From contig PHAN01000002.1 in NCBI GenBank assembly GCA_002841695.1, forward strand, positions 90,807-154,806: a stretch of DNA of 64,000 nucleotides, given 5' to 3'. Position 1 is the first letter of the stretch, and each line of letters opens with the position of its first letter. Shown piece by piece: positions 19,326-38,960 of this stretch. A program made the translations under genes and the position numbers. The stretch is from Elusimicrobia bacterium HGW-Elusimicrobia-1. Lineage in GTDB: Bacteria > Elusimicrobiota > Endomicrobiia > PHAN01. The notes under the pieces are model-generated. The model saw nothing but the letters and a program-made list of their open reading frames with translations. It did not search any database and was not told where the DNA came from.

Positions 19326-20267
19326 ATGCTGGAAAAACTCGTTTCAAGGATGACCCCGAAATGGCGCGACACGACGGTGGCTCTCGTTTTTCTTTCGCCG
19401 TTTCTGGCCGTTTACGCCGTTTTTCTCGTCTATCCGATTTTTTACTCGATGTATCTGAGTTTCAGGACGGTGAGCGTCGATACCGACATGTTCAACGTTT
19501 TTTCAGATATGAGATTTACCGGCCTGAAAAACTATATTGAACTTGCGAAAGATTATCACTTCTGGTGGTCGCTCGCCGTAACTTTTTACTACGCTATCCT
19601 CTATATACCGCTTCTGATTTTCTCCTCGCTCGTTCTGGCAGTGCTTCTTAACAATCATCTCAAAGGGCACTCGTTTTTCCGCAGCGCCTATTTCATGCCG
19701 AATGTCCTGGATATGTTTGTCGTCGGAACCATATGGATGTTCCTCTACGCCCCGCAGGGAGGCGTCATCTCGCAGATTATGAACGCTCTCGGCATAGATT
19801 TTTTTTCGCGCGAGGGAATACTCGGCAGCCCCCGCACCGCAATGCTCGGAGTCGTCGTGGCTTTGGTTCTCAAAAACACCGGTTTCGGAATGATTCTTTT
19901 TCTTGCGGCGATACAAAACATATCACGCTCGGTCTACGAAGCCGCCGACATCGACGGAGCCAGTAACTGGCAGAAGTTCACGAAAATCACGATACCTCTC
20001 GTGAGACCCATAATCCTTTTTATGGTTGTGACGGGTATGATAGGAGCGCTCAACTCCTTCACCGAAATTTACGCGATGACTTCCGGCAAGCCCAACGTCG
20101 TCGTTTTCGGTAAGACGATGGAGGCGACGCGCGTGGCGGGATATTATCTTTTCCGTCAGTGGGACAGGATGAATTACGGTTACGCCGCCGCCATGAGCTA
20201 CGCCCTTCTTTTTATTACGCTGGCGGTCTCTTACGTCAACGCGAAGATTCTTAAGTCGTCGCATTAG
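19326..20267 (+). CDS. ABC sugar transporter permease (MalF/UgpA-like)
   Basis: SD ACGGAGG; multi-TM; EAA-loop-type motif YEAADIDGASNWQKFTKITIPLVRP. Confidence 0.85.
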   Translation: MLEKLVSRMTPKWRDTTVALVFLSPFLAVYAVFLVYPIFYSMYLSFRTVSVDTDMFNVFSDMRFTGLKNYIELAKDYHFWWSLAVTFYYAILYIPLLIFSSLVLAVLLNNHLKGHSFFRSAYFMPNVLDMFVVGTIWMFLYAPQGGVISQIMNALGIDFFSREGILGSPRTAMLGVVVALVLKNTGFGMILFLAAIQNISRSVYEAADIDGASNWQKFTKITIPLVRPIILFMVVTGMIGALNSFTEIYAMTSGKPNVVVFGKTMEATRVAGYYLFRQWDRMNYGYAAAMSYALLFITLAVSYVNAKILKSSH

Positions 20268-20274
20268 AAAAAGG

Positions 20275-20332
20275 ATGTAGCGGTGGGATTGCCATCCCAC
20301 AAATTCGGCGAATAGCAATTCGCCCGCTACAT
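20275..20332. repeat. Palindromic intergenic element P6 (TGTAGCGG...CCGCTACA enclosing two hairpins)
   Basis: gatgtagcggtgggattgccatcccac...ggcgaatagcaattcgcccgctacat; related copies at 21196-21253 and 39231-39288. Confidence 0.7.
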
Positions 20333-20352
20333 TATTTCAACGGAGGAAAAAA

Positions 20353-21195
20353 ATGACATTGATAACAAAAACGCCGGAACTGGCAAAAAAAACATTTCTC
20401 TACGTCGCGCTGGCCGTAGGCGCGGTCTTCGTGCTTTTCCCGTTTTTCTGGATGATACTCGTTGCGCTGAAACCCGACGAACAGGTTTTCGCGCTGAATT
20501 TTATCCTGCAAAAACCGCTTCTTAAAAATTTCGTCGACATCTGGACGAATCCCTCGTATCCTTTCGGAAGATTCTTCGTCAACAGTTTGATAGTGGCGAC
20601 GAGCGGCGGTTTTTTCACGGCGCTGTTCTGCTCGCTGGGCGGTTACGTTTTCGCGAAGAAAGATTTTTATTTCAAAGAGCAGATATTCTGGATTCTTCTG
20701 GCTACGATGATGATACCGGGGATGATGTTTTTGGTGCCGCAGTTCGCCATCGTCACGAAACTCGGGTGGATAAACACCTACTCGGGAATGGTTGTTCCGC
20801 ATCTGGCCAATGTCTTCGGGATATTCCTGATGAGGCAGTACATGGAGACGATTCCGACGAGCATCATAGAATCCGCCAAGATAGACGGCGCGGGCGAATG
20901 GCAGATATTCTGGCGGCTGATAGTGCCGCTTTCCATGACAATAATAACGATGGTTTTTCTTTTGAGCTTTCTTTTTCACTGGTCGAACTTTCTCTGGCAT
21001 CTCGTCGTAAACACGCCCGAGTCGGACAAACTTACTCTGCCCATAGGCCTCGCGCTTTTTAAGGGGCAGTACACCTCCGACTGGGCAAAGATGATGGCGG
21101 CGTCGTGTTTCAGTATAATCCCGATAGCGTTGATATTCGTTGTCGCCCAGAAGTTTTTTATCGAGGGACTGACGTCGGGAGCCGTAAAAGAGTAA
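20353..21195 (+). CDS. ABC sugar transporter permease (MalG/UgpE-like)
   Basis: SD ACGGAGG; multi-TM; EAA motif IESAKIDGAGEWQIFWRLIVPLS. Confidence 0.85.
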   Translation: MTLITKTPELAKKTFLYVALAVGAVFVLFPFFWMILVALKPDEQVFALNFILQKPLLKNFVDIWTNPSYPFGRFFVNSLIVATSGGFFTALFCSLGGYVFAKKDFYFKEQIFWILLATMMIPGMMFLVPQFAIVTKLGWINTYSGMVVPHLANVFGIFLMRQYMETIPTSIIESAKIDGAGEWQIFWRLIVPLSMTIITMVFLLSFLFHWSNFLWHLVVNTPESDKLTLPIGLALFKGQYTSDWAKMMAASCFSIIPIALIFVVAQKFFIEGLTSGAVKE

Positions 21196-21253: not shown

Positions 21254-21277
21254 AAATCGTAAAAGACCGGAGGGAAA

Positions 21278-22627
21278 ATGAAAAAAATAAGATTAATGCG
21301 ACCGTTAGGGCGAATAGCAATCCCTCGTTTCACTCGGGACAAGTTTCGCCTGCTACTTGTTTCCTTACTTTTTGCTGTCTTTGTCGGTGGTTGCGTCCGG
21401 AAGGCAAAAGAGCCGATTGCCGATGGCGTCAAATTTCTCACCATCTGGCAGACGTACAATAACGAGGAACACGATGTGTTTCTCAAGGTCGTCTCCGAAT
21501 ACGAAAAGAATAATCAGGGCGTGAAGATAAAAGTTCAGCGCATACCGTGGGATCAGCACGTCACGAAAATAAAAGTAGCGATGATAACGCATACGGTGCC
21601 CGACATCGCGCGGGTTGACCCTGCTTTCCTGCCGCGGCTCGTGAGGTCGCGCTCGGTCATCGACTTGAGTGATTACGGCGCGGACAGAATCATCGGAGAT
21701 CTCGTACCCGCTGCGGCGCAGGCGAACGTCTTCCCCGAGTCGTTCTTCGTCCACGGCTCGACGTCGTCGCGCAAAAGGATATTCGGCCTTCCCGATCAGA
21801 CGACCGGCGTGGCGCTTTTTTATAACAAAAAACTCTTCGCCGATGCCGGGTTCGCGCGCGGGCCTGCGACGTGGGAAGAATTCGTCAAATACGCCAAAGC
21901 CCTCACGCGCGACCTCGACGGCGACGGTCGCGCCGACCAGTTCGGCTTTGCGGCGGACCTTTCGCTGTGGTTCACATTTCCGTTTTTTAACACATACGGT
22001 GTGAAATTCATCAGCGACGACGGAAAAACCTGTCTGCTGGACTCTTTGGCGGCGCGCGAGGCGCTTCAACTTAAAGTGGATCTCTACGCCAGGCACAAGG
22101 TCGAGGCGGGCGCCTGGCAGGCGGGCGCGATAAGCCCCGACACCGGATTCATTAACCGCAAATACGCGATGATATTTACCGGCCCGTGGAACCTCAAAAG
22201 ATTCAAGGACGCGGGCATTCCGTTCGGCGTTTCGCTGATACCGCGCGGACCCGCCGGTTCGTCGACAAACGTCGGCGGATCGAGTATGGTGGTATTCAGA
22301 ACATCCCGCCATCCCGACGAAGCGTATAAGTTTCTCATGTATCTTGTCTCGCCGGCGACGCAGAAAAAGTGGGCGGAGGCGCTGAGTCAGATTCCCGTCA
22401 ATATCAAGGCATATCCGATGGTGAACGTTTCCGCGCTGCCGGAACTGAAAATATTCATGGAGCAGATGAAGACGGCCGTGCCGCGCCCGAAGGTTCTCGA
22501 CTATGACGAACTCGAAAGCATAATGAATGCCGAGATGTACACCGCGCTTTCGGGACAGAAAACCGTCGAGCGGTCGCTCAAGGACGCCGTCGAGGAAATC
22601 AACAAGAGGGTGTTGAATCTGGAATAA
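21278..22627 (+). CDS. Extracellular solute-binding lipoprotein of sugar ABC transporter (family 1, MalE-like)
   Basis: SD CCGGAGGG; lipobox-like LLFAVFVGGC; 449 aa, typical size and composition of SBP_bac_1. Confidence 0.75.
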   Translation: MKKIRLMRPLGRIAIPRFTRDKFRLLLVSLLFAVFVGGCVRKAKEPIADGVKFLTIWQTYNNEEHDVFLKVVSEYEKNNQGVKIKVQRIPWDQHVTKIKVAMITHTVPDIARVDPAFLPRLVRSRSVIDLSDYGADRIIGDLVPAAAQANVFPESFFVHGSTSSRKRIFGLPDQTTGVALFYNKKLFADAGFARGPATWEEFVKYAKALTRDLDGDGRADQFGFAADLSLWFTFPFFNTYGVKFISDDGKTCLLDSLAAREALQLKVDLYARHKVEAGAWQAGAISPDTGFINRKYAMIFTGPWNLKRFKDAGIPFGVSLIPRGPAGSSTNVGGSSMVVFRTSRHPDEAYKFLMYLVSPATQKKWAEALSQIPVNIKAYPMVNVSALPELKIFMEQMKTAVPRPKVLDYDELESIMNAEMYTALSGQKTVERSLKDAVEEINKRVLNLE

Positions 22628-22628
22628 G

Positions 22629-22772
22629 TTAGGGTCTAGGGTTTAGTAAAATGAATAAAAATATAGAAAAGACAGGGTTTAGAAAGGCAGGGTTTAGGGT
22701 TCAGGGTTTAGGGGTTAGGATTTTTGTTTTAATTTTTTTCTATACCCTAACCCCTAAACCCCATGCCCTGCT
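22629..22772. repeat. Leader palindrome P3 (second copy), overlapping start of 22651..23760
   Basis: gttagggtctagggtttagtaaaATG...cagggtttagggttcagggtttaggggttagg...ctataccctaacccctaaaccccatgccctg. Confidence 0.75.
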
Positions 22773-23760
22773 TTTCTCCGCGCCGCGTCACACCATTACC
22801 GTCGACGGCGATTTATCCGAGTGGGCGTCCGACGAAACAAGAGTCGCCGATTCCGCCGACTCCGTATGGGACCCGGGCGCCGGCAAAAACGAGATAAAAA
22901 ATCTCCGCGTCACGTGGGATGCCGAGGCGCTTTACGTGGGCGTCGAGGGAATGGCGACGGACAAAGGTATCCTGTTATATCTCGACAGCGGGCGCGGAGC
23001 GGGTTATTCCGATTTGCGCGAAATAAAAACGTGGAACCGCCGCGTGAGCTTCGAAAACTTTGCGCCCGATTTCTTCTACGGCGCGTGGGACGGCTCCGAC
23101 GGCAATTTTTACAGGTTGAGTTCTTCGTGGAGCGCCGAGAACGTAAGTTCAAAGTGTTCGCTGAAAAACTCTAAAACTTCGGCCGCGGCGGGGTGGGAGA
23201 TGAAGATTCCTTTCGACCTTCTTTATTCGCGCGGGAACGCCGTCGATACCGGGGCGCGCATAAAGATATTCGCCTCCCTTGCCACCGGCGACATAGGTTC
23301 GGCCGCGTCCGGAGATTACGGCTATCTCGGCGGTGACTGCGCGCCGGACAACGAATTGACCGGACTCGGCGACGCCCTGATATCAAATTACGCGCAAGTC
23401 GTCGTCGATTCCGACGGCGACGGCCTGCCCGACGACGCTTTTGCGCGCGCTGCGCTTTCCTTCAGAGAGGTGTCTCTTTCGGAGGTTAAGTTTGCGCCCG
23501 CGCTTCACTCCTTGACGATTTTGCGCGTCGAGGTCACAAAAGAATCTTCGGTCTCGGCGGAAATCTACGGCCTCGACGGAAAAAAAATCAGGACGCTTTC
23601 GGCACAGACCTCCGCCCAAAATTTTGTCCTGAGTTTTTCGTGGGACGGCCGGGACGATTCGGGCGCCGATGTCGCCGGCGGCGTTTACATAATCAATCTG
23701 CGCGCGTCTTCGCTCGACGAAAGCGCGCGTCTTAATAAGGCCGTCGTTGTCATAAGGTGA
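22651..23760 (+). CDS. Secreted protein with CBM9/DOMON-like N-terminal domain and C-terminal FlgD-Ig/T9SS-like domain
   Basis: N-terminal HTITVDGDLSEW...LRVTWDAEALYVGVEG (homologous to 13306 and 40565 N-termini); C-terminus SAEIYGLDGKKIRTL...WDGRDDSGADVAGGVYIINL...VVVIR. Confidence 0.7.
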   Translation: MNKNIEKTGFRKAGFRVQGLGVRIFVLIFFYTLTPKPHALLFSAPRHTITVDGDLSEWASDETRVADSADSVWDPGAGKNEIKNLRVTWDAEALYVGVEGMATDKGILLYLDSGRGAGYSDLREIKTWNRRVSFENFAPDFFYGAWDGSDGNFYRLSSSWSAENVSSKCSLKNSKTSAAAGWEMKIPFDLLYSRGNAVDTGARIKIFASLATGDIGSAASGDYGYLGGDCAPDNELTGLGDALISNYAQVVVDSDGDGLPDDAFARAALSFREVSLSEVKFAPALHSLTILRVEVTKESSVSAEIYGLDGKKIRTLSAQTSAQNFVLSFSWDGRDDSGADVAGGVYIINLRASSLDESARLNKAVVVIR

Positions 23761-23876: not shown

Positions 23877-24752
23877 TTGCCGAACTGTGAACTTTTAACT
23901 ATGGACTTTTTCTCTCTTTTCTCGTCGGTGCAGAAATTCCCTGTCTTTGTCTGTGCCGCAATATTCCTCGTTTTATGCCCGACGGACGCGCTGGCCGCTT
24001 TCATCCGTTTCCCGTCCTCAGCGAGGGTGTTGTCGCTGGGCGGCGCCTCGGCGGCGCTTGCCGACGACGCATCGGCCGTGCGCTCCAATCCCGCGGGGAT
24101 GGTTCAATCGGATGGAATCGCTCTCGCCTGCGGCTACGCCGATATCTATGCCGCCGATGGATTGTACCGCGCCGAGACGGCTGCGGTTTATGCGCGCGGC
24201 GCCTCGGCGTGGGGCATCTCGTGGGAGAAACTCGGACTTCAGGGGACTTATGACGAGGACGTCGCGGCTATCGCCTTCGCAAGGCAAATCTCCGACAGTA
24301 CGAGCGTCGGGGCGGCGGTTTCTTCTTACAAAAGTGAAGTCAAGAATTTTACGACGCCGTTTTATAAAGGCCCACGCTCGGCCGCGGGCTTCGCCCTCGG
24401 CGTTTTATGGCAGATTTCCGACGACATACTTGCCGCCGCCGTCGCCGACAACATCAACGAACCGCAGCTTGCCGACGGCGAAAAACTAGCTCAATCGGCG
24501 CGGCTGGGCTTAAGATACCATCCATTTGCGAGCGGTCTTGTAACAGCGGAACACGAAACGGCCGGCAATGTTTTGCGCTGCGGATTTGAGGTCGTCATCG
24601 GCGGAATGCTGCCGGTGCGCGTCGGCGTCGAGCGTGGCCGCCCGACCTTCGGATTCGGCATAGAAACAGGTTTTATCTCGATTGATTTCGCCCTGCTTTC
24701 CGACCATAATCTGGGTCAACTCTACCAGACGGGTGTCAGGATGAAATTATGA
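23877..24752 (+). CDS. Beta-barrel outer-membrane protein, PorV/PorQ- or PorP/SprF-like (start may be ATG 23901)
   Basis: Motif SLGGASAALADDASAVRSNPAGMV near N-terminus, same family signature as 12258..13250. Confidence 0.6.
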   Translation: MPNCELLTMDFFSLFSSVQKFPVFVCAAIFLVLCPTDALAAFIRFPSSARVLSLGGASAALADDASAVRSNPAGMVQSDGIALACGYADIYAADGLYRAETAAVYARGASAWGISWEKLGLQGTYDEDVAAIAFARQISDSTSVGAAVSSYKSEVKNFTTPFYKGPRSAAGFALGVLWQISDDILAAAVADNINEPQLADGEKLAQSARLGLRYHPFASGLVTAEHETAGNVLRCGFEVVIGGMLPVRVGVERGRPTFGFGIETGFISIDFALLSDHNLGQLYQTGVRMKL

Positions 24753-26314
24753 AAAAACCGCTTGCGCGCCTCATTCTGGCGGTTATGGCGCTCGGCTTTG
24801 TCGATGCCGCGGCTTGGGCTTCGTCTGTCGGAATCGGCGGTTATTACGAAACCGAATTTTCTTGGCGTAAGGAATCGGATTTCGAATGGAATCTCGCCTC
24901 GCCAAAGCATTACCTGCAGACAAAGTTTTGGGCGAATCCGCGACAAGGTGTGGAAGTATATTCGCAGTTTTCGGCGCGCACGAACGAAAGTTGGAACGAA
25001 AAATATTTTTTCGAACTTGAGCGCGGGTGGGGAAAATGGCGGTTTGGTTCGGGCGAGACATTTTTTCTGCTTAAAGAAGAAAGACACTGGATCGACTCGC
25101 CGCTCTTACGAATATCCGAACAATCGAAGGCCTCATACTTCAACGACGGCTCCGGCGCGCGGATCAACTTTTTCGGCGCGGGGACACCCTTGAGGGCAAG
25201 CGTTGTTTTAACAAAGTCCCTGCCTAAAGCGCGGCAGGAGTGGTACGGCTCTTATTTTGACGAAAACGCGCATAATTTCGTCGCACGCCTTGGCGCGGAT
25301 TTCAGGACACCTATCGAGGCGCTCGACAGAATATCCGTCGGAGGATCTTATCTGAATTCGGCGCTGATACAGCAAAAGTACGATTCCGCCGGCAATTTTC
25401 TCAATGAGCACGCGATGATAAACGACGTCATTTCGCTCGACGCCAAACTTTCGGTTTTCGACGCGACATTGACGGGCGAATGGTCGGGTTCCCAAAAAAA
25501 AGGATCGGCGAACGACCCGCTTCCGTCGGAAAATCAGACGGCGTTCGCCGCCGAGTTGCGCGACTTAAACTTAAGGCCGCTGCGCCTGCAAACGCGTTTC
25601 TACGACTATGGGCCGGGCTATCGTTCGGAGCTGTCGCGCGCCTTCGGGCGGCTCTCCCGCGACGGAAACGACGCCGACAAAGAGTTCGGCCGCCGGGGAT
25701 ATTACTTTGAAACCGGCTATCTGTGGCCGAAAAAAATGATAACCTTCACGTACAAACGAAAATATAGAATGTCTGACTTCGATTACCTGACCAACAATCA
25801 GAATATCCGCGAGGATTATATTATTTACCGGGCCACAGAGACGTATACCGGTTCCTACGACGCTATCGAATCGCGGATAGATTTCGCCAACGGCATAAAA
25901 AACATCTCCGCCGTCGAGCTTTCCGGCGATAGACAAGGATCGTGGCCGGGGTTTCTCTTTGAAATTTCGGGCGATACGCGCGATGTTTATTCGCGCGTCC
26001 AGTTCAGGGTAAAGGACGCCGGCTCCGAAACGGGTCTTGGCGAAAGACACATCATCGGCGCCGAAGTCAGATACAACCTTTCCGATCATCTGCAGCTTTA
26101 TGCGCGCACGGTCTCGGTGAACGCGGCTAAACGCGGCAGAAACTGGTCGAGCGCTTTCTATCAACTTAGATATTTTATGGGATGGGACATCGAGGGTTAT
26201 GTTGAATACGGCGACGGCTGGCACACCGATTCGCTGTCGCACGACTCCGACATAACCGATTACGATCGCTCGCTCGTCGACGTGGTCAGGATACTTTTCA
26301 AGATTAACTTTTGA
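24749..26314 (+). CDS. Outer-membrane beta-barrel protein (unknown family; candidate glycan channel)
   Basis: ATGA start/stop overlap with upstream gene; signal peptide MKKPLARLILAVMALGFVDAAAWA; C-terminal ...RILFKINF. Confidence 0.55.
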   Translation: MKKPLARLILAVMALGFVDAAAWASSVGIGGYYETEFSWRKESDFEWNLASPKHYLQTKFWANPRQGVEVYSQFSARTNESWNEKYFFELERGWGKWRFGSGETFFLLKEERHWIDSPLLRISEQSKASYFNDGSGARINFFGAGTPLRASVVLTKSLPKARQEWYGSYFDENAHNFVARLGADFRTPIEALDRISVGGSYLNSALIQQKYDSAGNFLNEHAMINDVISLDAKLSVFDATLTGEWSGSQKKGSANDPLPSENQTAFAAELRDLNLRPLRLQTRFYDYGPGYRSELSRAFGRLSRDGNDADKEFGRRGYYFETGYLWPKKMITFTYKRKYRMSDFDYLTNNQNIREDYIIYRATETYTGSYDAIESRIDFANGIKNISAVELSGDRQGSWPGFLFEISGDTRDVYSRVQFRVKDAGSETGLGERHIIGAEVRYNLSDHLQLYARTVSVNAAKRGRNWSSAFYQLRYFMGWDIEGYVEYGDGWHTDSLSHDSDITDYDRSLVDVVRILFKINF

Positions 26315-29859: not shown

Positions 29860-29901
29860 TATAAAAGAAGGGAGAAGTTTAAGAAGTAAGAGGCAAGAAG
29901 T

Positions 29902-30253
29902 GAGACCGTTGAAAAAGTTCACCGGATGTCACCCTGAACGAAGTGAAGGGTCTCGTTGTCCGTAGGAAGGCGAGATTCTTCCCAAGTTTTCAACTTGGTC
30001 AGAATGACAAAATAGAGGTTTTTCAACGGTCTCAAGTAAGAAACAAGAATTGTCTTTATCTTGTCTCTTACTTCTCGCCTCTTGCTTCTTATTATGAGAC
30101 CGTTAAAAAAGTCCCCTTGGTCGTCATTACGAGGAGGTCGCCGTGGCGACCGACGAAGCAATCTCGTTTTTCAATCAAAATGTGAGATTGCCGCGCCCCG
30201 CCACACAACGGCGGGGCTCGCAATGACAAATTACGGAGTTTTTCAACAATCTC
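29902..30253. mobile_element. Two adjacent MITE-like elements (gagaccgttgaaaaag ... tttttcaacggtctc TIR family)
   Basis: Element A 29902-30033 and element B 30096-30253, each bounded by inverted repeats; flanking agaagtaagaggcaagaag arms also inverted (29881 vs 30058). Confidence 0.65.
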
Positions 30254-30301: not shown

Positions 30302-32470
30302 TCAGAAAATGACTTCGACGGAAATTTCGTCGCCGGGCGCGACACGCTCGGCGTTTACCCGCGCGAAGTTAAAGCGGCTTTCAAGCGTTTCGCCGAATAT
30401 CTTGTTTGTCGTCGAGAACTCGGTTTTCTTCCCTTCGACGAGAACTTTCCTGGCTTTGCGCTTCCCTCCAAAAACCAGAAAACTGATTTCCTGCGTTTCA
30501 GGCGCCCCGTCATAAGAGCCGCCCTCCGCCGCCGATAACTTTATCAAGACCCTGCCGCCGCGCGAGCGCGCAATAACGCGTCTTTTAAGATACGCGCCGT
30601 TGTCGCAGGCGTTTGTGACGCCGTCGTCTTCGTAGTAGTCAAAAAACGTTTCGCCGCGCGACGGAAAAACGAGAAATTCAATATTTTTCGGCACGCCGAG
30701 CCGCCCGGCCGGCGCGGTCGACGGAATTATCGAGCCCTCCCGGGCGAAGAGCGCGATTTTGTCGATGGCGACGTCGATATGGCGCGAGCGTTTTCCTTTT
30801 ATTATCTCGCCGTCCTCAAGTGGTATCCACGTGCCTTCGGGGAAATATGTCATTCTCGTGGAAACCCTGCCCGGCGAGTAAGCGGGCGCGGCCATAAGCG
30901 AAGCGCCGATGAGGTACTGCTCCCTGTAATCGTAGCAGTTTGCGTCCCGCGGATACTCGACGTAAAGCCCGCGGAAAGGCGGCACTCCCGTTTCGTGGCA
31001 TTCGCGCGCCAAAGAGTAAAGATAAGGATTCAGCGCGTATCTCGCGCGGACGTATTTTTTGAAGATAGAAACCGCCTCTTCGGAATAATTCCAGGCGTCG
31101 CGGGACGCGCCCGACGAATGTGTGCGCAAAACAGGAGAAAAACATCCGAACTCTACCCATCTGATAAAAAGTTCCTCGTCTATATTTTTTCCCAGAAACC
31201 CGCCGATATCGTGCGACCAGTAAGCCGCGCCTATGTTCCCGCCCTGATGCGTGAATGCAATCTGGCGCTTTATCGTCTCAAAAGTCGAATATGTATCGCC
31301 GGAGAATTGTACCGGATATTTGTGGGAGCCGATACCGCCCCATCGTGAAAGTATCATCGCTCTGCGGCCGTCGCGGGCATTGGCGGCGGCTTCGTAGTAA
31401 AACCTGTTGAGCCACATCTGAGAGTGCAAGTCCATTATCCCGCCTGAAGCGCCCCAGCCGTCCACCCACCAGAAGTCGATTCCTTCGTCGAGAATTTTCG
31501 TGAATATCTTTTCCGACCACGCGCGCACATAGCGGTCGTCGTTCCACTGAACGCGGAAATCGCTTATATCGGGCAGGACTTTTTTTATTTGGGCGCGGCA
31601 GGGGTCGTCAGGGGGAAGCTCGTCCGAAACGCCGTAGCCGGGGTGGTCGTTGAGGCAGCATTTCACTCCGAGTTTTTTTAGATCCGAGATGAACCGCGCG
31701 GGATCGGGAAAGAACTCGGAGTTCCACTCGTAGCCGTTCCATCCGCATTTTCGCCAGTCGGTGTCTATGACGAAGACGTCCAGAGGTATGCCGAGTTCGC
31801 GGAATTTGTCGACGACGCCGAGGATATCATCGTGGCGGAACTTGTGCCAGCGCGAGTACCAGTAGCCGAGCGCCCATCGGGGTATCATCGGGATTTTCCC
31901 GAATAGTCCGATAAAATCGGCGAAGGCCTTTTTGTAGTCGGTTCCGCAGGCGAAGAAATACCAATCCTGAAAGTCGCTCGACGAGCGCTTTTTTATCCAT
32001 CCGGTTTTTTCGTCGCGCAGAAAATCGCAGTGGTTGCGGTAGACGAAGTAGCCGTTTTTCGAGACGAGGCCCGGCGTGAAGCTCTCGTAAATCTTGCCCG
32101 ACGGATATTTGTAAAGGTCGATGTGCGCGCCGCCGAGGTTTTCGGTGTCTTCGCCCCCCGGTTCGAATACACTCTCGCCCGAGAGCGCGCCGAAGACGCG
32201 GATTTTGAGGTTGCCTATGTCGAAGCATTTTCCGTCGGGAAGGAGTTCCAGCGCGAAGCGGCGGGTTTTGAGGGCGAACAGGCCGTTGGTTACAACCGAG
32301 TGGGGGACTTCCCCGCTGAAATTCGGTTCGAGTATCAGCGGATTTTCGTCGTCGAAAACTCCCTCCGCGGTGTATTCAAGCCGCAGCAGCGAGTCGGAGT
32401 AAACTGTGACGCGGTAGTTTTTGTCGACGAGATAAACCACCGGCGCCGAAGATATTTTGTGTATTTTCAT
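30302..32470 (-). CDS. GH31-family alpha-glucosidase-like enzyme, cytoplasmic (no signal peptide)
   Basis: 722 aa; motifs PRWALGYWYSRW, FWWVDGWG, SHDIGGF resembling GH31 signatures. Confidence 0.7.
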   Translation of the reverse strand: MKIHKISSAPVVYLVDKNYRVTVYSDSLLRLEYTAEGVFDDENPLILEPNFSGEVPHSVVTNGLFALKTRRFALELLPDGKCFDIGNLKIRVFGALSGESVFEPGGEDTENLGGAHIDLYKYPSGKIYESFTPGLVSKNGYFVYRNHCDFLRDEKTGWIKKRSSSDFQDWYFFACGTDYKKAFADFIGLFGKIPMIPRWALGYWYSRWHKFRHDDILGVVDKFRELGIPLDVFVIDTDWRKCGWNGYEWNSEFFPDPARFISDLKKLGVKCCLNDHPGYGVSDELPPDDPCRAQIKKVLPDISDFRVQWNDDRYVRAWSEKIFTKILDEGIDFWWVDGWGASGGIMDLHSQMWLNRFYYEAAANARDGRRAMILSRWGGIGSHKYPVQFSGDTYSTFETIKRQIAFTHQGGNIGAAYWSHDIGGFLGKNIDEELFIRWVEFGCFSPVLRTHSSGASRDAWNYSEEAVSIFKKYVRARYALNPYLYSLARECHETGVPPFRGLYVEYPRDANCYDYREQYLIGASLMAAPAYSPGRVSTRMTYFPEGTWIPLEDGEIIKGKRSRHIDVAIDKIALFAREGSIIPSTAPAGRLGVPKNIEFLVFPSRGETFFDYYEDDGVTNACDNGAYLKRRVIARSRGGRVLIKLSAAEGGSYDGAPETQEISFLVFGGKRKARKVLVEGKKTEFSTTNKIFGETLESRFNFARVNAERVAPGDEISVEVIF

Positions 32471-32487: not shown

Positions 32488-32618
32488 GAGACCGTTGAAA
32501 AAGTATTTTTTACTATTTTGTCATTCCCGAACGTTTTAATCGGGAATCCATTACTGACGGAAACTCTGGATTCCCGCTTTCGCGGGAATGACATAATTAA
32601 GGGTTTTTCAACAATCTC
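32488..32618. mobile_element. MITE-like element, same TIR family, with internal gtcattcccg...cgggaatgac palindrome
   Basis: gagaccgttgaaaaag ... tgtcattcccgaacg...cgcgggaatgacat ... tttttcaacaatctc. Confidence 0.65.
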
Positions 32619-32644: not shown

Positions 32645-35083
32645 TCAGCGCGCAACGAGTATCATCGCCGATCCTGCCGGGATGTCCACGGACAACTTCG
32701 ATTTTTTTACTTTCATTAAGCGTGAGGGCTTTGCGACCCTGATTTTTTTTACGACGCGTCCGCCGTCGGCGCCGGGGGCGTCGAAGAGTTCGTAGCGCTT
32801 CTCGCCGAGGATGTCGAAGTACTCCGTTCCGTCGGGCGCGCCCGCGTCGAACGTGACGGCGCGGGAGGCGGCGGAATTGTTGACCGCGACAAAAATCCTG
32901 TCCGCGCCTCTTCTCCTGGCAAAGACGATAATTTCATTTTCGTCGTCGGCGAGCACACTCTCGTAAACGCCGGTATGGAGTTCCTCGCGCGTGTTATGTA
33001 TCGCGGAGAGTTTCCTGTAGTGCTCGTAAATATCGCGCATAAATATTTTATCTTTATCGTCGAACGCAAGGTCTTTCCATACCATAGGCTCGCGGCAGAA
33101 CGGGTCGTCCGAACTCCACATCCCGGCTTCGGAGCCGTACCATATCATCGGCGCACCGGGCAGCGCAAACTGCACAGCCGTCACTTTTTTGAGTTTTTCG
33201 TAGACGTCTTTCGACGGCCGCCCCTGCTTGTACGACGGGTTATAGTCGCCGGTGTCCGACGGATTGAGGCGGTTACCCTTGTCGTAGTGGCGCCCCGGAT
33301 TAGAAAGCATCGAGACGGCGCGGTCGGTGTCGTGGCTGTCGAAGAGATTCTGCTGGACGAAGTTGACCTGATAAGGATAAAGCGCCAAAAGCCGTTTTAT
33401 CTCCGAATCAAACTTCGAGGGCTTTATCCAGCCGTTGGAGAGCCAGTTGAGCGTCGTCTTGATAAAAGGATAGTTCATCTGCGCGTGAAAAAGTTCGGGT
33501 TTCAGCCATTCGGGGGATTCGTCCCATAATTCGCCCGAGATATAGGCGTCGGGGTTGATGGACTTGACAAGCCGCGACCACTCGACCCAGAAAGGCATCT
33601 TGACATTCTCGGGAACGTCTAATCGCCAGCCGTCTATACCGTCGGAAGGATCGCCGTCGCCGTTGGGATCCATCCAGCGGCGGGTGATGTCGAAGATGTG
33701 TTTTTTTGGGCCGGCGACGAGACCGTTTTCGTCTTCCCTGAATTCCGGCAGCCCGCCGAATCCCGCCCAACCCTCGTAGCCGCGGCCAGTGTGCGCTTCG
33801 CGCATGAATAATTCCCAGTCGGTGACACTGAACCAGTCGGCGTATTTCGATTTCCTGCCTTTTTTCTTGACGTCGTTAAATGCCCAGAAGTTATCGCCCG
33901 AGTGATTGAATACTCCGTCGATGATGACGCGAAAGCCCATCGCCTTGGCTTTTTTAAGAAAATCCAGAAAGAGCATGTCGGTCTTTGTCCATTTCCACGT
34001 GGCGGGATCATCCGTCTCGCCCCTGAGTTCGGCGATGTCGCCCTTGAATCCGAGATTGTCGTCTATGTGGCGATAATCCGAGGTGTTGTATTTGTGGTGC
34101 GATTCGGCTTTGAATACCGGCGTAAGATACAGCGCGGTCACGCCCATTTCTTTGAGATAATCAAGTTTTTCGACGAGTCCCTGAATGTCTCCGCCGAAGC
34201 GCCGTCCCCAGACGAAATCGTAGAAGCCGCCCTGCTCCGAGGGATGTTTCCTGGAAAAATCCCATGTCCACGGAAGCGAGCCGTCGGGATTGTTCGCGGG
34301 GTCGCCATCGCGGAAGCGCTCGGGCATTACCTGATACCAGACCGCGCCTTTCGCCCAATCGGGCGTCGCGAACTTTATTTTTGTCGAGGCAGTGAAAACC
34401 GTCCCGGCGGAGGGGTAAATTATCTTGGTGTTTCCGTCGGCCAGGGCAAACGAATATTTGAGATTTTGCGCGTCGCGGGGAATCTCGGCGAAAGCGCTCC
34501 AGTAGTCGAAGCCGAGATAGGTCTTTGTTTTTTCCATCGCAAAACGTTTGCCGCCGCCCGAGACGACTTCGGCGTTTTCGACGTCTCCGGCGAGCGCGCG
34601 AAGTTTTATCTCGGCAAGACCCTTCGTTATTACGTTAAAATATTCTATCTTGCGAGGATCGTGGCGCAGCGCCGCCACCGCGATGTTGTTGAGAATAGGC
34701 GCCCCGTATGACGTTCCCGTCTCACCGACGGCAATGCCCGAATTGAAACCTCCGAAGCCGTCTTCCTTTTTTAGGGCCGCGTCGGCCTTGGGGTCCTCCA
34801 TCCAGCGGTCGCCGTTGACGACGAGTTTGTATAAGTGGAGGCCTTCTTTGAGTTCGAGCTTCGCCTCGAATTTCCCGTCGGGCCGCCGGCGCATCAGGTC
34901 TTTTGAGGAATTCCATTGGTTAAACGATCCGACTACCGCCACGGAATTTACCGCCTCTCCGGGCCGGGGTTCATATAGAAAAGAGATTTTCTGCGTCGGC
35001 GCAATCACCGCCGACAGAGCCGTCGTCATCAACAGCGCGACGGAGAAAACCGCCGCGAAGAAACATTTTTTCGATGAAAACAT
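32645..35083 (-). CDS. Secreted GH13 alpha-amylase/neopullulanase-like enzyme with N-terminal CBM48-like domain
   Basis: Signal peptide MFSSKKCFFAAVFSVALLMTTALSA; CBM48 VAVVGSFNQWNSS...LHLYKLVVNGDRW; GH13 regions VIIDGVFNHSGD, GWRLDVPENV, YISGELWD, FDSHDTDR. Confidence 0.85.
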   Translation of the reverse strand: MFSSKKCFFAAVFSVALLMTTALSAVIAPTQKISFLYEPRPGEAVNSVAVVGSFNQWNSSKDLMRRRPDGKFEAKLELKEGLHLYKLVVNGDRWMEDPKADAALKKEDGFGGFNSGIAVGETGTSYGAPILNNIAVAALRHDPRKIEYFNVITKGLAEIKLRALAGDVENAEVVSGGGKRFAMEKTKTYLGFDYWSAFAEIPRDAQNLKYSFALADGNTKIIYPSAGTVFTASTKIKFATPDWAKGAVWYQVMPERFRDGDPANNPDGSLPWTWDFSRKHPSEQGGFYDFVWGRRFGGDIQGLVEKLDYLKEMGVTALYLTPVFKAESHHKYNTSDYRHIDDNLGFKGDIAELRGETDDPATWKWTKTDMLFLDFLKKAKAMGFRVIIDGVFNHSGDNFWAFNDVKKKGRKSKYADWFSVTDWELFMREAHTGRGYEGWAGFGGLPEFREDENGLVAGPKKHIFDITRRWMDPNGDGDPSDGIDGWRLDVPENVKMPFWVEWSRLVKSINPDAYISGELWDESPEWLKPELFHAQMNYPFIKTTLNWLSNGWIKPSKFDSEIKRLLALYPYQVNFVQQNLFDSHDTDRAVSMLSNPGRHYDKGNRLNPSDTGDYNPSYKQGRPSKDVYEKLKKVTAVQFALPGAPMIWYGSEAGMWSSDDPFCREPMVWKDLAFDDKDKIFMRDIYEHYRKLSAIHNTREELHTGVYESVLADDENEIIVFARRRGADRIFVAVNNSAASRAVTFDAGAPDGTEYFDILGEKRYELFDAPGADGGRVVKKIRVAKPSRLMKVKKSKLSVDIPAGSAMILVAR

Positions 35084-35226
35084 TGTGCCTCCATTACGTC
35101 ACAGAGAGATGGATGAAAAGGCGGCATCGTTCAATTCCGCCGCGAAGCCATTATACAAAAATGACCCTCGCAGGCAAAAATCGGTAAAACGTTTTAACAC
35201 AGGCGGTATCCGCCGTCCGCGCAATT

Positions 35227-35255
35227 TTTGGAAAGCGCCTTTTCATTATGTATAA
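35227..35255 (+). promoter_or_regulatory. Near-consensus sigma70-type promoter (TTGGAA-N17-TATAAT) upstream of the ABC ATPase gene
   Basis: ttggaa at 35227-35232, tataat at 35250-35255, 17-nt spacer, ~34 nt upstream of ATG 35289. Confidence 0.45.
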
Positions 35256-35288
35256 TTCGGCTGACAACCTTGGATAACCGGAGGAAAT

Positions 35289-36392
35289 ATGGCTCAAGTC
35301 ATCATCAAAAATGTCTGGAAAAAATACGGGGACGCCGAAATCGTAAAAAATTTCAATCTTACGATAGCGGACAAGGAATTCTGCATTCTCGTGGGCCCGT
35401 CGGGCTGCGGCAAAACGACCACGCTTCGCATGATAGCCGGACTCGAAGATATTTCATCCGGAGAGATCCTCATCGGGGACGTTGTCGTCAACGGTGTGCC
35501 TCCGAAGGACAGAGACATCGCCATGGTCTTCCAGAACTACGCGCTCTATCCGCATATGAATGTGCGCGACAACATGGCCTTCGGACTGAAGCTGCGGGGT
35601 TATTCAAAAAAACTCATCGACGAGCGTGTCAACGAAGCCGCCGACATTCTCAACATAAAACATCTCCTGGCCAGAAAACCCAAGGATCTCTCGGGCGGTC
35701 AGCGTCAGCGCGTTGCAGTGGGACGGGCCATCGTCAGAAAACCTAAGGTCTTTCTTTTCGACGAACCGCTCTCCAACCTTGACGCCAAACTCCGCGCCCA
35801 GATGCGCGCGGAACTCAAAAAACTCCACCAGCGACTTCAGGCGACGATGATATACGTCACGCACGACCAGATCGAGGCCATGACGATGGGCGATAAAATC
35901 TGCGTGATGAAAGACGGCGTGATACTGCAGGTCGACGAGCCGATTAAACTTTATTCGGATCCGGTCGACAAGTTCGTGGCCGGCTTTATCGGCTCCCCGC
36001 CGATGAACTTTTTCGATTGCAAGGTGGCCGCGAAGGATGACGCGGTGTGGATATCCGAGGGTAGTTTCGATATTAAACTCTCCGCTAAATTCACCGCCGC
36101 GCTTAAAAATCTCGACGGTAAAATGGTTACGGCCGGCATCCGCCCCGAAGATATTCACGACAAACTCTTCTATCGCATAGGCCCCATGGACGGCAATATC
36201 TTCACCGCTACGGTGGACGTCATAGAGCCGCTCGGCGCCGAGATTTATCTGCATATGAACACCGGGAAAAACTCTTTCGTCGCAAAGGTTGATTCGCACA
36301 ACACCGCTAAGCCCAACCAGATTCTCGAACTCGTCGTCAATGTCGATAAAATAAAGATTTTCGACAAGGAAACCGAAACGGCGCTGGCTTGA
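35289..36392 (+). CDS. Sugar ABC transporter ATP-binding protein (MalK/MsmX/UgpC type with C-terminal regulatory domain)
   Basis: Walker A GPSGCGKTT, ABC signature LSGGQRQRVAVGRA, Walker B VFLFDEPLSNLD, H-loop YVTHDQ. Confidence 0.9.
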   Translation: MAQVIIKNVWKKYGDAEIVKNFNLTIADKEFCILVGPSGCGKTTTLRMIAGLEDISSGEILIGDVVVNGVPPKDRDIAMVFQNYALYPHMNVRDNMAFGLKLRGYSKKLIDERVNEAADILNIKHLLARKPKDLSGGQRQRVAVGRAIVRKPKVFLFDEPLSNLDAKLRAQMRAELKKLHQRLQATMIYVTHDQIEAMTMGDKICVMKDGVILQVDEPIKLYSDPVDKFVAGFIGSPPMNFFDCKVAAKDDAVWISEGSFDIKLSAKFTAALKNLDGKMVTAGIRPEDIHDKLFYRIGPMDGNIFTATVDVIEPLGAEIYLHMNTGKNSFVAKVDSHNTAKPNQILELVVNVDKIKIFDKETETALA

Positions 36393-36465
36393 AAGCGGAG
36401 GTAAATGATAAATGGTGAATGGTGAAAAGGATAATGTCTCACTAAATAATGTGCGCTCCGTAAAG

Positions 36466-36545
36466 GTAGTGTAGCCCTTTATGGGCGTTTCTTTATGGGC
36501 GTTTCTTTATGGGCGTTTATTGACGGGGACAAGCCCCTACACTAC
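36466..36545. repeat. REP-family palindrome plus 3 tandem copies of ctttatgggcgttt
   Basis: gtagtgtagccctttatgggcgtttctttatgggcgtttctttatgggcgtttattgacggggacaagcccctacactac. Confidence 0.7.
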
Positions 36546-36572
36546 ACCAAAATAGGAAGTAAGAGGCAAAAT

Positions 36573-38960
36573 ATGAACCCAAAAACAAAAACATTTTTGG
36601 CGGCTGCTTTTTTTTGTGTATCGACGATATCCGGTTTATTCCCGCCGCCCGCGCACGCGCGAGGGCTTGAAACGCCCGTCATCGACGTCGAGGCGGGTTC
36701 CGTCGTCGAGATGCCGCTTGATTTGTTCGTCGGCGCGCCCGTCGCGTCGGGGCCGGCGGTTACCAATATATCCGGCGCGAAGTCCGTCCGCGTTTCCGTC
36801 GCGCCAAAAAGATCCGCCCTCGTCATTTCGGCGCCGGCGGGTTTTTCGGGCTTCGACGCTTTCGTCGTCTCGGCTTCCTCCGACGGCAAAACGACTTTTT
36901 CGCGCGCCGTGGCGGTGAGGGTGACAGCGCCGCGCCGGACTGTTTTGCGCTATAAACCGGCAAAATCCGTCAAATCCGTCGCCGCGGCGGGGGACTTTAA
37001 TTCGTGGAATCCTTCCGCCTCGCCCATGACGGGGCCCGACAAGAAAGGTTTCTACTCCATTGAGCTTAAACTCGCCGCCGGAGAGTACAATTATAAGTTC
37101 GTCGTCGACGGACAATGGCTCGCCGACACGGCCAACCCCGCATCCGTCCCCGACGGCTTCGGCGGAACGAACTCCGTTGTTTTCGTAGGCGCGCCGCCTA
37201 AGTCCGGCCGATGGCACAGCGTTGTCGTCGACGATACAACCGCGCGCGTCGCGTATATCGCCGGCAAAGCCGCGCCGTCTTTCGACGCCGCATCGCTGTT
37301 GCTCGTCTCCGGCGATAAAATCCTCGCCCGCGGAGGCGACTATTCCGTTGATGAAACGCGCGGCGAAATAGCGATTAAACTCGCATCCCTCGGTTCGCCG
37401 CCCGCCGACGTCATGATATTGGCCCGCGATAAATCGGGTGCGATACTGAGCGGCTTCGTCGCCCGCTTTCCGTCGGACGACGGATGGAACGGGCGGCTGA
37501 TGTACTTCGCCTTCACCGACAGATTTCACAGCGGCTCGGCCGCCAATGACCGGCCATCCGGCGACCCTGACGTTGCGCCGGCGGCGGATTTTCGCGGTGG
37601 CGATTTTGCCGGCATCACAGAAAAACTCCGCGACGGCTATTTTGAGCGGCTCGGCGTGGGAGCGCTGTGGATATCGCCTCACTTTAAGAATCCCGACCGG
37701 CCATATATCGACGCTCTTCCTCCGCATAGAAAGTTTACCGGCTATCACGGCTACTGGCCGGTTTCTTTCGACGAGACCGACCCGAGATTCGGGACTATTG
37801 AAGAACTCCGCGAACTCGTGGCCGCGGCCCATAAGCGCGGCATCAAAGTCATTCTCGATATGGTGTTAAACCACGCCCACGAGGAAAATCCCGTCTACAA
37901 GAAAAATCCCGGATGGTTTTCAAAAATTACTCTGGCCGACGGCCGCAAAAATATCCGTCTTTTCGACGAGCGTCCGCTCGACACGTGGTTCGACGACTTC
38001 CTGCCCGACTTTGCCTACGAAGGTAATCCCGCCGCCGTCGAATATATGGTCTCAAACTGCCTCGATTGGATCAAGAAAACAAACTGCGACGGCTTCCGCC
38101 TCGACGCCGTCAAGCACGTGCCTATGGTATTCTGGACGGAACTCCGCCGCCGCATCCGCCGCGACATCGAAATCCCGCGCGGAGAAATGTTTTACCTCGT
38201 AGGAGAAACCATCTCCGGACGCGAAAAAATAATGGAATACGTCGGCTTTGATAAACTCGACGGACAGTTTGATTTTCCGATATACTGGGCGATAAAAGAC
38301 GTCTTCGCCTGGCAAACTAAAGGTCTCGACTATCTCGAACGCGAGAGCGGGAAATCAGCTTTGCAGTACGTCGGATCCATTCCGAGCCCGCTTTTGGGCA
38401 ATCACGACTTTGCCCGTTTCAGCGCTTTCGCCGACGGCGCGATACCTCCCGGTTCCAACGAAAAAGCGCGCTCGTGGGACAATCGCCCCGAAGTCAAAAA
38501 CCGCTCTACCTATCAAAAACTCCGTATGGCTTTCGCTTTTCTTCTCTCTGAGCCGGGCGTTCCCATGATTTATTACGGCGACGAAATAGGCCTCTCGGGC
38601 GCGGGCGACCCCGACAACCGCCGAATGATGAAGTTCGACAAACTCTCAGGCGACGAGCGCGAAACCCTCCAATATGTCGGCGCGCTGGCCGCGTTCCGCC
38701 GTGCCTCCAAGGCGCTCCGTTTTGGCGAGCGCCACACGCTTGTGTCGTCGGAAAACACCCTCGTTTACCTCAAAAATTATTTCGGCGAAACTGCCGTCGT
38801 TGCAATCAACCGTTCGCCCCGCCCCGCCGAAGTCAGCGTTGAACTTCCGCCGTTTTTCAAAAACCCCGCGTCCTTTGAAGACGTAGTAAGCGGCAAAAAA
38901 ATCCAACTCAAAAAGTTGCGCATCCCCCCGATGAGCGCCGTCGTCCTTCGCGGCATCTGA
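36573..38960 (+). CDS. Secreted GH13 alpha-amylase-family enzyme with CBM48-like domain
   Basis: Start at ATG 36573 (after SD aggaagtaagagg) preferred over track start 36495; signal peptide MNPKTKTFLAAAFFCVSTISG; CBM48 AAAGDFNSWNP...GEYNYKFVVDGQW; GH13 regions VILDMVLNHAHE, GFRLDAVKHVP, FYLVGETISG, LGNHDFARF. Confidence 0.85.
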   Translation: MNPKTKTFLAAAFFCVSTISGLFPPPAHARGLETPVIDVEAGSVVEMPLDLFVGAPVASGPAVTNISGAKSVRVSVAPKRSALVISAPAGFSGFDAFVVSASSDGKTTFSRAVAVRVTAPRRTVLRYKPAKSVKSVAAAGDFNSWNPSASPMTGPDKKGFYSIELKLAAGEYNYKFVVDGQWLADTANPASVPDGFGGTNSVVFVGAPPKSGRWHSVVVDDTTARVAYIAGKAAPSFDAASLLLVSGDKILARGGDYSVDETRGEIAIKLASLGSPPADVMILARDKSGAILSGFVARFPSDDGWNGRLMYFAFTDRFHSGSAANDRPSGDPDVAPAADFRGGDFAGITEKLRDGYFERLGVGALWISPHFKNPDRPYIDALPPHRKFTGYHGYWPVSFDETDPRFGTIEELRELVAAAHKRGIKVILDMVLNHAHEENPVYKKNPGWFSKITLADGRKNIRLFDERPLDTWFDDFLPDFAYEGNPAAVEYMVSNCLDWIKKTNCDGFRLDAVKHVPMVFWTELRRRIRRDIEIPRGEMFYLVGETISGREKIMEYVGFDKLDGQFDFPIYWAIKDVFAWQTKGLDYLERESGKSALQYVGSIPSPLLGNHDFARFSAFADGAIPPGSNEKARSWDNRPEVKNRSTYQKLRMAFAFLLSEPGVPMIYYGDEIGLSGAGDPDNRRMMKFDKLSGDERETLQYVGALAAFRRASKALRFGERHTLVSSENTLVYLKNYFGETAVVAINRSPRPAEVSVELPPFFKNPASFEDVVSGKKIQLKKLRIPPMSAVVLRGI

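Follow-up and report, generated by a model that had tools for sequence, protein, structure and literature searches.

A conserved Elusimicrobiota locus for putative α-glucan capture and import combines CBM48 modules with outer-membrane barrels of no known family

We analyzed positions 19326-38960 of a 64-kb window (the whole 64,000-nucleotide stretch, to which all coordinates refer) from the metagenome-assembled genome of Elusimicrobia bacterium HGW-Elusimicrobia-1, scanning open reading frames of at least 100 amino acids with Pfam and NCBIfam profiles. We consider it moderately probable that this region encodes a conserved system by which a diderm Elusimicrobiota bacterium captures and imports an α-glucan (glycogen, starch, or maltodextrin), a judgment that extends to the whole mechanism proposed below. 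The enzymes, CBM48 modules, and ATP-binding cassette (ABC) importer are of ordinary kinds; novelty lies in the outer-membrane block, in both its protein families and its architecture. Searches of the literature on starch or glycogen use by Elusimicrobia and on CBM48 domains associated with outer-membrane β-barrels found no description of such a system. A preliminary description of this DNA had also proposed an α-glucan utilization locus, and gene-by-gene profile searches recovered all of the elements that it listed, each in its place.

19326-20267 and 20353-21195, plus strand: g11 and g12, MalF/MalG-like ABC permeases of the CUT1 family (BPD_transp_1)
21278-22627, plus strand: g13, solute-binding lipoprotein of the CUT1 family (SBP_bac_1, E = 4e-42)
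22651-23760, plus strand: g14, 369-residue exported protein with a CBM9/CBM74-like N-terminal domain (~240 residues) and a FlgD_ig/CHU_C-type C-terminal domain ending in VVIR (FlgD_ig, 28.7 bits)
23877-24752, plus strand: g15, 291-residue small barrel, remotely PorV/PorQ/FadL-like (PorV_fam, 38.8 bits, below the cut-off of 90; Toluene_X, weak)
24749-26314, plus strand: g16, 521-residue outer-membrane barrel of ~24 strands, no known family, Phe at its end (AlphaFold2 model, predicted local distance difference test score [pLDDT] 76)
26339-28363, plus strand: g17, 674 residues, with a signal peptide, a CBM48 (~33-123), an invariant linker PNTPYS, and a barrel of ~22 strands (136-673), Phe at its end (AlphaFold2 model, pLDDT 62.7)
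28368-28796, plus strand: g18, 142-residue CBM48 lipoprotein starting 4 bp after g17 (CBM_48, 39.4 bits)
28843-29859, plus strand: g19, 338-residue Sec-exported protein with three CBM48 modules (AMPK1_CBM, 168.6 bits in three stretches)
30302-32470, minus strand: g20, GH31 α-glucosidase without a signal peptide (PF01055, 217 bits, E = 5e-64)
32645-35083, minus strand: g21, Sec-exported CBM48 plus neopullulanase/TVAII-like GH13 (Pfam; PDB 1jf6, E = 4e-85, also 1bvz)
35289-36392, plus strand: g22, MalK-type ABC ATPase (ABC_tran, OB_MalK at 55 bits, TOBE_2)
36495-38960, plus strand: g23, Sec-exported CBM48 plus α-amylase-type GH13 (Pfam; PDB 4e2o, E = 8e-55)

Several features support an α-glucan utilization locus, and neither outcome that the preliminary description had named as refuting one, non-amylolytic enzymes or CBM48-like domains that fail in profile searches, was observed. 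First, the GH13 enzymes are amylolytic. GH13 regions I-IV are intact in g21 (DGVFNH, GWRLD, GELW, SHD) and in g23 (DMVLNH, GFRLD, GETI, NHD), both of which carry their CBM48 N-terminal to the GH13 domain, and the catalytic aspartate motifs of GH31 are present in g20 (WWVDG and FSGD). The nearest solved relatives of g23, whose true start is probably Met27, are amylases from Geobacillus and Anoxybacillus and cyclodextrin glucanotransferases. A signal scan found lipoboxes in g13 and g18 and Sec-type signal peptides in g14, g16, g17, g19, g21, and g23; g20, which has neither a hydrophobic N-terminus nor a signal peptide, was therefore assigned to the cytoplasm, as its sequence predicts. All scores of g20 against the NCBIfam equivalogs for α-xylosidase and MalA were far below the cut-offs.

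Second, the CBM48 modules are genuine, as the preliminary description had supposed. All five proteins passed the curated gathering cut-offs of AMPK1_CBM or CBM_48 (42 bits for g17, 39 for g18, 169 in three copies for g19, 36 for g21, and 41 for g23), and the Trp-Lys-Trp glycogen-binding triad is kept: W66, K96, and W103 of g17 are invariant in the nine-member alignment A1 and correspond to the glycan-binding residues W100, K126, and W133 of the AMPK β CBM, and both g18 and g19 show equivalent FN(x)W, YKF, and DG(x)W motifs. The lipobox of g18 (FSGC) is kept in five of five orthologs, and orthologs of g19 occur in all cassettes. Three proteins had been listed simply as CBM48-bearing; all three do carry the module, but the 674-residue one, g17, is itself an outer-membrane barrel, which brings the number of barrels within 19326-38960 to three.

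Third, the locus encodes an importer of the CUT1/MalK type, as expected, with two BPD_transp_1 permeases and an ATPase in which ABC_tran is joined to OB_MalK. The earlier label "MalEFGK-type" holds at the level of the CUT1 family only, as g13 is no MalE equivalog: it scored 58.4 bits against NF007011 (cut-off 291), and its best NCBIfam match, GanS, reached 72.8 bits against a cut-off of 700. The g13 lipobox (VGGC) is conserved in orthologs, and the orthologs of g11 and g12 in other cassettes are 58-88% identical.

The unusual part of the locus is its pair of large barrels. Both g16 (CVU77_01410) and g17 (CVU77_01415; 100% identity in each case) are annotated as hypothetical proteins, neither barrel part matched a Pfam family even at an E-value of 10, and an hhalign comparison of the two barrel families (alignments A1 and A2) gave a probability of 0.7%, with no homology detectable. 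Foldseek searches of the PDB returned matches generic to the barrel fold, with AlgE at the top and TM-scores of at most 0.4, and hence the size class of these barrels can be claimed but not a family. The C-terminal phenylalanine, a residue typical of substrates of the β-barrel assembly machinery, is present on both proteins in the window and in the orthologs examined, with the exception of the g16 ortholog of one homologous locus (L010), which ends in tryptophan. No plug domain or TonB_dep_Rec match was found in g17, where the 12 residues between the CBM48 and the first strand leave no room for a plug, and no TonB-box-like motif was apparent by eye in alignment A1.

When the barrel part of g17 alone was used as a HMMER query against 1.84 billion cluster representatives, 13 proteins were found, and all of these relatives with an intact N-terminus carry a CBM48. 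The fusion of CBM48 to barrel is obligatory among them, and the family is small and unannotated. In word-indexed searches, g17 retrieved 13 proteins, g16 retrieved 18, and g14 retrieved 14; those with a named source were labeled Elusimicrobia, Elusimicrobiota, or Endomicrobiia and were called "hypothetical" or "glycogen-binding domain-containing". The segment that joins the two parts of g17 (residues 124-139; 26708-26755) is unusually strongly conserved for a linker, with PNTPYSxKIxF invariant across relatives of 41-87% identity, a pattern suggestive of a contact with a function, for instance in gating, as a hinge, or in the binding of a partner.

The model of g17 provides a clue to the orientation of this fusion. 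Five connections between strands are 20 residues or longer (218-254, 319-350, 474-510, 542-561, and 625-664), and all of them run from odd to even strands; the ten even-to-odd connections are each five residues or shorter. In outer-membrane barrels, long loops are extracellular, short turns are periplasmic, and both termini face the periplasm. By this rule, the N-terminus of strand 1 lies in the periplasm and the attached CBM48 lies in the periplasm or the lumen. Judged from loop-length parity only, we infer that this module sits at the periplasmic mouth of the barrel or within it, where the plug of a TonB-dependent transporter would sit, and not at the cell surface, where the preliminary description had placed it. 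The long loops are poorly modeled, yet nothing else in the barrel domain is as well conserved, and they contain invariant aromatic clusters (W318-W319-P320...W328-F329-P330) and the motifs NPxKAFGLWEQ and PLDxHPY; among the conserved long loops of the large barrels, WWPWANxDNNWFPDP has extracellular parity. Such aromatic loops would fit a role in contacting sugar or lining the lumen.

Conservation of gene order shows that these genes travel together. A metagenome scan followed by tblastn found ~25 loci that match the barrel region of g17, and those with enough flanking DNA encode, in this order and at identities as low as 23-30%, a C-terminal-domain protein, a small barrel, g16, g17, a small CBM48 protein, a multi-CBM48 protein, and ABC genes. 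Identical gene order on ~25 independent contigs is far beyond chance. In the gene neighborhoods of homologs, the order is (GGDEF, GGDEF), MalF, MalG, binding protein, and g14-g15-g16-g17-g18-g19, followed by a variable set of GH13, GH31, and MalK genes. Synteny was seen in homologous loci L001-L011 and in ~15 further metagenome contigs at 23-32% identity; the cassette order is kept at 42-54% identity in L001 and L005, at 31-39% in L002 and L006, likewise in L003, and even in L010, where the barrels are just 24-29% identical and a LacI regulator takes the place of the cyclases. One locus, from a "Candidatus Hydrothermales" genome (L009), encodes in order a binding protein, a g14-like protein, a small open reading frame, a g16-like barrel, a Por_Secre_tail protein, and a 579-residue protein with a CBM48 and a C-terminal domain. 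The constant core of the unit is the outer-membrane/periplasmic block g14-g19 together with the ABC importer. One contig that carries the cassette (JBGFRZ010000077.1; L001/L005) is labeled "Ignavibacteria bacterium", with permeases 84-88% identical and other parts 42-72% identical; either this contig is mis-binned or mislabeled or the cassette has moved between phyla.

The conserved unit begins upstream of 19326. In other genomes, two GGDEF genes (16623-19296 in the window) and two pairs, each of a C-terminal-domain protein and a small barrel (9528-16623), accompany the cassette, and the functional unit is therefore wider on this side. The upstream genes are as follows.

5-6298, plus strand: g01, giant multidomain GH13 protein of at least 2097 residues, its 5′ end cut by the window (Alpha-amylase, 81 bits; fn3; CarboxypepD_reg; CBM_20, weak)
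6448-8849, plus strand: two secreted proteins, no Pfam match
9528-12215, plus strand: g05, 895-residue exported protein with a FlgD_ig/CHU_C-type C-terminal domain (FlgD_ig, 29.1 bits; CHU_C, weak)
12258-13250, plus strand: g06, small outer-membrane barrel of the PorV/PorQ family (NCBIfam PorV_fam, 149.5 bits; cut-off 90)
13306-15414, plus strand: g07, 702-residue paralog of g14 with a CBM9/CBM74-like N-terminal domain, fn3, and the same C-terminal domain (blastp against g14)
15661-16623, plus strand: g08, 320-residue small outer-membrane protein, TraF_2-like (Pfam, 26.5 bits), partner of g07
16623-19296, plus strand: g09 and g10, two membrane-anchored diguanylate cyclases directly upstream of the permeases (GGDEF, E = 1e-40 and 7e-46)

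GH13 regions II-IV were found in g01, a candidate cell-surface or extracellular amylase. L008 retains the pair g05 and g06. Orthologs of g07 precede the cassette in L003, L005, and L010, and in L003 and L005 they are adjoined by orthologs of g08.

A further recurrent arrangement concerns export. The C-terminal domain of g14 (CVU77_01400, 100% identity, annotated as a hypothetical protein) scored 28.7 bits against FlgD_ig (cut-off 27) and 16.5 against TIGR04183 (cut-off 23), its homologs carry CHU_C, and its C-terminus is conserved in orthologs. The same domain, ending in VV(I/A)R, is common to g05, g07, g14, and g30, and four times in the window the gene for such a protein is followed by one for a small FadL/PorV-like barrel (g05/g06, g07/g08, g14/g15, and g30/g31 at 53078-58074). 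In Bacteroidota, cargo proteins of the type IX secretion system (T9SS) of type B are known to be paired with outer-membrane partners of the PorP/SprF or PorV/PorQ kind. The four pairs resemble that arrangement in that the gene for a large exported protein with a conserved Ig-like C-terminal domain, a putative sorting domain, directly precedes one for a small barrel; they differ in that the host belongs to Elusimicrobiota, a phylum not known for T9SS, only g06 passes the PorV_fam cut-off, and g14 falls below that of TIGR04183. We propose that g15, whose ortholog in L002 also matches g06, is an anchor or shuttle for g14.

The N-terminal domain of g14 may bear on what is captured. It is shared with g07 (blastp, E = 2e-20; E = 4e-8 for the C-terminal domains), and Pfam searches at E-values up to 10 found nothing meaningful in the N-terminal domains of either protein, or in g02, g03, and the N-termini of the GGDEF proteins. 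In an hmmsearch, the g14/g07 family profile A3 matched the CBM74 of Sas6 from Ruminococcus bromii (7uwu, E = 6.6e-5; 7uwv, E = 1.6e-4) through the motif TIxVDGDLSDW...LYxxWDxDNLY, and the C-terminal part of the profile matched FlgD Ig domains. CBM74 binds granular starch and double-helical α-glucan, and its nearest fold is that of CBM9 (bioRxiv 10.1101/2022.11.20.514607). For this reason, we call the domain CBM9/CBM74-like, its membership in CBM74 being unproven. In both organisms the domain sits in starch-dedicated proteins; however, that of g14 has ~240 residues, compared with ~330 in CBM74, the motif is common to the CBM9 fold as well, and Sas6 carries a dockerin and belongs to a Gram-positive amylosome. 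We propose g14 as a putative surface binder of α-glucan. A 2412-residue secreted protein elsewhere in the window (40565-47803; fn3, kelch-like, and Ig domains) starts with TITIDAALADW...FYFTWDASNFYF, which resembles the start of the g14/g07 domain; the blastp match is weak (E = 0.09).

These features lead us to lean toward a mechanism of surface capture, barrel passage, periplasmic cutting, and ABC import, in which we infer all of the compartments and the channel role of the barrels. First, g01, g14, and g07 would bind and nick the polymer at the cell surface, g14 and g07 being exported by way of their T9SS-like C-terminal domains and held by the cognate small barrels g15 and g08. Second, the plug-less barrels g16 and g17 would give glucan chains a path across the outer membrane; with no TonB box or plug, this passage would be passive. 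Third, the CBM48 of g17, together with g18 and g19, would grip the emerging chain, providing inward bias and retention. Fourth, g21, in the position of SusA or MalS, and g23 would cut the chain to oligosaccharides in the periplasm. Fifth, import of these oligosaccharides would fall to the binding lipoprotein g13 and the MalFG-like/MalK-like transporter. Finally, the cytoplasmic GH31 enzyme would release glucose. A bolder version, which we offer tentatively and with well under even confidence, is that g16, g17, and g18, with g19, constitute an undescribed TonB-independent translocon, in which a CBM48 in the plug position serves as gate or ratchet and permits "selfish" uptake of polymer without SusCD, LamB, or TonB energy, and that this device is ancient and shared by Elusimicrobiota and some neighboring candidate lineages.

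Several observations weigh against the proposed mechanism. The g17 model is of moderate confidence (pLDDT 62.7, with long loops below 50), and the structural matches of the large barrels are generic, with no TM-score above 0.4. Barrels of this size elsewhere are typically translocators of proteins or lipopolysaccharide, or plugged active transporters, and not diffusion channels. Open barrels of 22 and 24 strands would be dangerously leaky, so some occluding element must be required. A barrel can deliver an N-terminal domain to the surface, as happens in autotransporters. None of the core T9SS genes (SprA/Sov, PorKLMN) was seen within the 64-kb window, and a literature search on Elusimicrobia and type IX secretion found no statement that the phylum has this system. 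The confident part of the match to CBM74 is limited to 57 profile positions and lies where the module begins, at its N-terminus. The PDB neighbors of g13 are mixed, with maltose and acarbose binders among them, and its substrate cannot be read from sequence. Finally, the nearest characterized relative of g20 is not a maltase but a strictly nigerooligosaccharide-specific α-1,3-glucosidase from L. lactis (7wj9, E = 9e-89).

The strongest alternative, which we nevertheless rate as doubtful, is a Sus-like surface arrangement in which the N-terminal domain of g17, g18, g19, and the CBM48-GH13 enzymes are all displayed on the cell exterior, where they would capture and cut the polymer, leaving nothing longer than short oligosaccharides to pass the barrels. 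Its appeal is that the gene for g18, a conserved lipoprotein, starts 4 bp after that for a 22-strand barrel, much like a SusC/SusD-type pair, that proteins with several CBMs, as g19 has, typically act as surface binders, that large barrels might serve in the export or display of partners, and that an N-terminal domain might be threaded outward through its barrel. However, g17, g18, g19, g21, and g23 all lack the putative C-terminal sorting domain found on g05, g07, g14, and g30, and loop parity puts the N-terminus of g17 in the periplasm. Characterized GH13 enzymes of the neopullulanase type (SusA, TVAII) are, moreover, periplasmic or cytoplasmic, and barrels of 22 and 24 strands would be needless if only small oligosaccharides crossed. 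The same absence of this domain bears on two earlier claims. The idea that the CBM48 proteins act at the surface as analogs of SusE/F finds no support, as none of them has the domain of g05, g07, and g14; for g21 and g23, described as secreted, Sec export stands but an extracellular destination is unsupported. Better candidates for surface capture would be g14 and g07, with their CBM9/CBM74-like domains, and the giant GH13 protein g01.

A second alternative would make g16 and g17 devices for protein translocation or display, of an usher-, Slam-, LptD-, or MtrB-like kind, through which the binding proteins g14, g18, and g19 would be exported or in which they would be housed, with glucan fragments entering through unrelated general porins. 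A translocator of proteins alone would hardly account for the CBM48 fused to g17 in every relative, the conserved loops rich in aromatic residues resemble surfaces that contact sugar, Pfam found no usher plug, POTRA, or TPR domain in either protein, and the structural matches are generic to barrel size. We therefore think this reading unlikely, despite the need of plug-less barrels for an occupant, the tight and partly overlapping spacing of g15-g16 and g17-g18, and the constant pairing of barrels with small secreted binders in the cassette.

It is very unlikely, in our estimate, that the substrate is a non-starch or self-made α-glucan, such as one of mixed α-1,3/1,4 linkage or a biofilm or periplasmic glucan controlled by cyclic di-GMP (c-di-GMP): the closest characterized homolog of g20 is, to be sure, the strictly nigerooligosaccharide-specific α-1,3-glucosidase, and a pair of diguanylate cyclases that look active is kept directly upstream, but the locus has neither a glycosyltransferase nor a PilZ domain nor an exporter, its transporter works inward and depends on a binding protein, the CBM48 modules and the neopullulanase-like and amylase-like GH13 enzymes indicate α-1,4/1,6 glucans, and L010 has a LacI-type sugar repressor in the absence of cyclases and L002 a histidine kinase with a CBM48 sensor. 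Biosynthesis or export of an exopolysaccharide driven by c-di-GMP was rejected outright, given the lack of any glycosyltransferase or PilZ domain and the nature of the ABC system, a binding-protein-dependent importer.

How the proposed capture-and-import system compares with known ones is instructive. Diderm bacteria have few known routes for polysaccharides, namely specific porins such as LamB and TonB-dependent transporters of the SusCD type. The analogy to a Sus system drawn in the preliminary description captures the broad logic, but that logic resembles the mal system of E. coli no less closely. Like the Sus system of B. thetaiotaomicron (SusCDEFG with SusA and SusB), the locus appears to combine surface binding with an endo-amylase, the gene for a ~22-strand barrel with that for a glycan-binding lipoprotein, and a periplasmic neopullulanase (g21 in the position of SusA), all in one dedicated α-glucan locus. 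Unlike Sus, it encodes no SusC, with its plug, TonB box, and TonB_dep_Rec domain, and no SusD, just as had been stated earlier: scanned open reading frames across the window gave no match to SusC, SusD, the plug domain (PF07715), TonB_dep_Rec, or LamB, and the lipoprotein beside the g17 barrel is the 142-residue CBM48 protein g18 rather than SusD/RagB. Its binders are of CBM48 and CBM9/CBM74-like types and not SusE/F, its inner-membrane importer is an ABC system rather than the major facilitator superfamily transporter of Sus, and it adds a 24-strand barrel and small PorV-like barrels, with transport presumably not energized by TonB. With the mal system (LamB, MalS, MalE, MalFGK2, and MalZ/MalQ/MalP), the locus would share passive passage through an outer-membrane channel, an amylase that binds glycogen in the periplasm, cytoplasmic trimming, and a binding-protein-dependent CUT1 importer with a MalK ATPase bearing the regulatory OB/TOBE domain. 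It differs in having, in place of the 18-strand trimeric maltoporin LamB, barrels of ~22 and ~24 strands of unknown family, one of them fused to CBM48; in a binding protein that is a lipoprotein and no MalE equivalog; in enzymes that carry CBM48; in its extra soluble and lipoprotein CBM48 binders; and in the placement of all genes in one locus.

The locus would thus give a deep-branching and almost uncultured phylum a dedicated, strongly conserved outer-membrane apparatus for α-glucan, built from three uncharacterized barrel families. If the barrels are the conduit, they would represent a new class of glycan importer and could support "selfish" scavenging of glycogen in groundwater and sediment communities; if they are instead devices for protein display, they would represent a new surface-display system outside Bacteroidota. 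The barrels, of ~500-700 residues, and the small CBM48 binders lend themselves to reconstitution, and several families of "hypothetical proteins" would gain functional names.

Control of the locus may involve c-di-GMP. The GGEEF motif is intact in g09 and g10, g09 has an RxxD I-site, and transmembrane segments were found. The cyclase pair is kept upstream in L001, L002, L003, and L005; L010 has a LacI gene downstream instead. Through these conserved cyclases, expression or attachment is probably coupled to c-di-GMP. Inside the cassette of L002 (15181-17859 of that locus) lies a histidine kinase with a CBM48-like sensor region and HAMP, PAS, HisKA, and HATPase domains, a candidate for a direct sensor of α-glucan. 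Two further features of the window may be regulatory.

35084-35288, no strand assigned: divergent intergenic region with σ70-like sites at 35177-35150 (minus strand) and 35228-35256 (plus strand), each with 10 of 12 matches and representing consensus matches only
39322-39924, plus strand: g24, regulator with a MerR-type helix-turn-helix and a receiver domain (Pfam)

It is possible that g24 is a local regulator of the locus, although it is not conserved in the other cassettes examined. Rfam, at gathering thresholds across the whole window, gave no matches and thus no riboswitch for c-di-GMP or any other ligand. A scan for intrinsic terminators found 39 where 33 were expected, which is not above chance, and operon ends were therefore not called from it.

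Some minor features were also observed. At 48928-49326, the window encodes a 132-residue member of the 23S-rRNA-intervening-sequence/bAvd-like four-helix-bundle family (E = 1e-37), with no reverse transcriptase in the neighboring scanned reading frames. The intergenic DNA on either side of the GH31 gene (29901-30253 and 32488-32502) contains four copies of a palindromic repeat of 15-16 nucleotides, GAGACCGTTGAAAAA and its complement, compared with 0.03 expected by chance; among them is a pair of fully (100%) complementary 16-nucleotide arms 102 nucleotides apart. The repeat looks like a small element of the repetitive extragenic palindromic (REP) or miniature inverted-repeat transposable element type. 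A reading frame that overlaps the start of g05 resembles a transposase.

9080-9538, plus strand: IS200/Y1-transposase-like reading frame of 152 residues (Y1_Tnp, E = 7e-11)

A REP-associated tyrosine transposase, connected with the palindromic repeats, is one possible identity of this protein.

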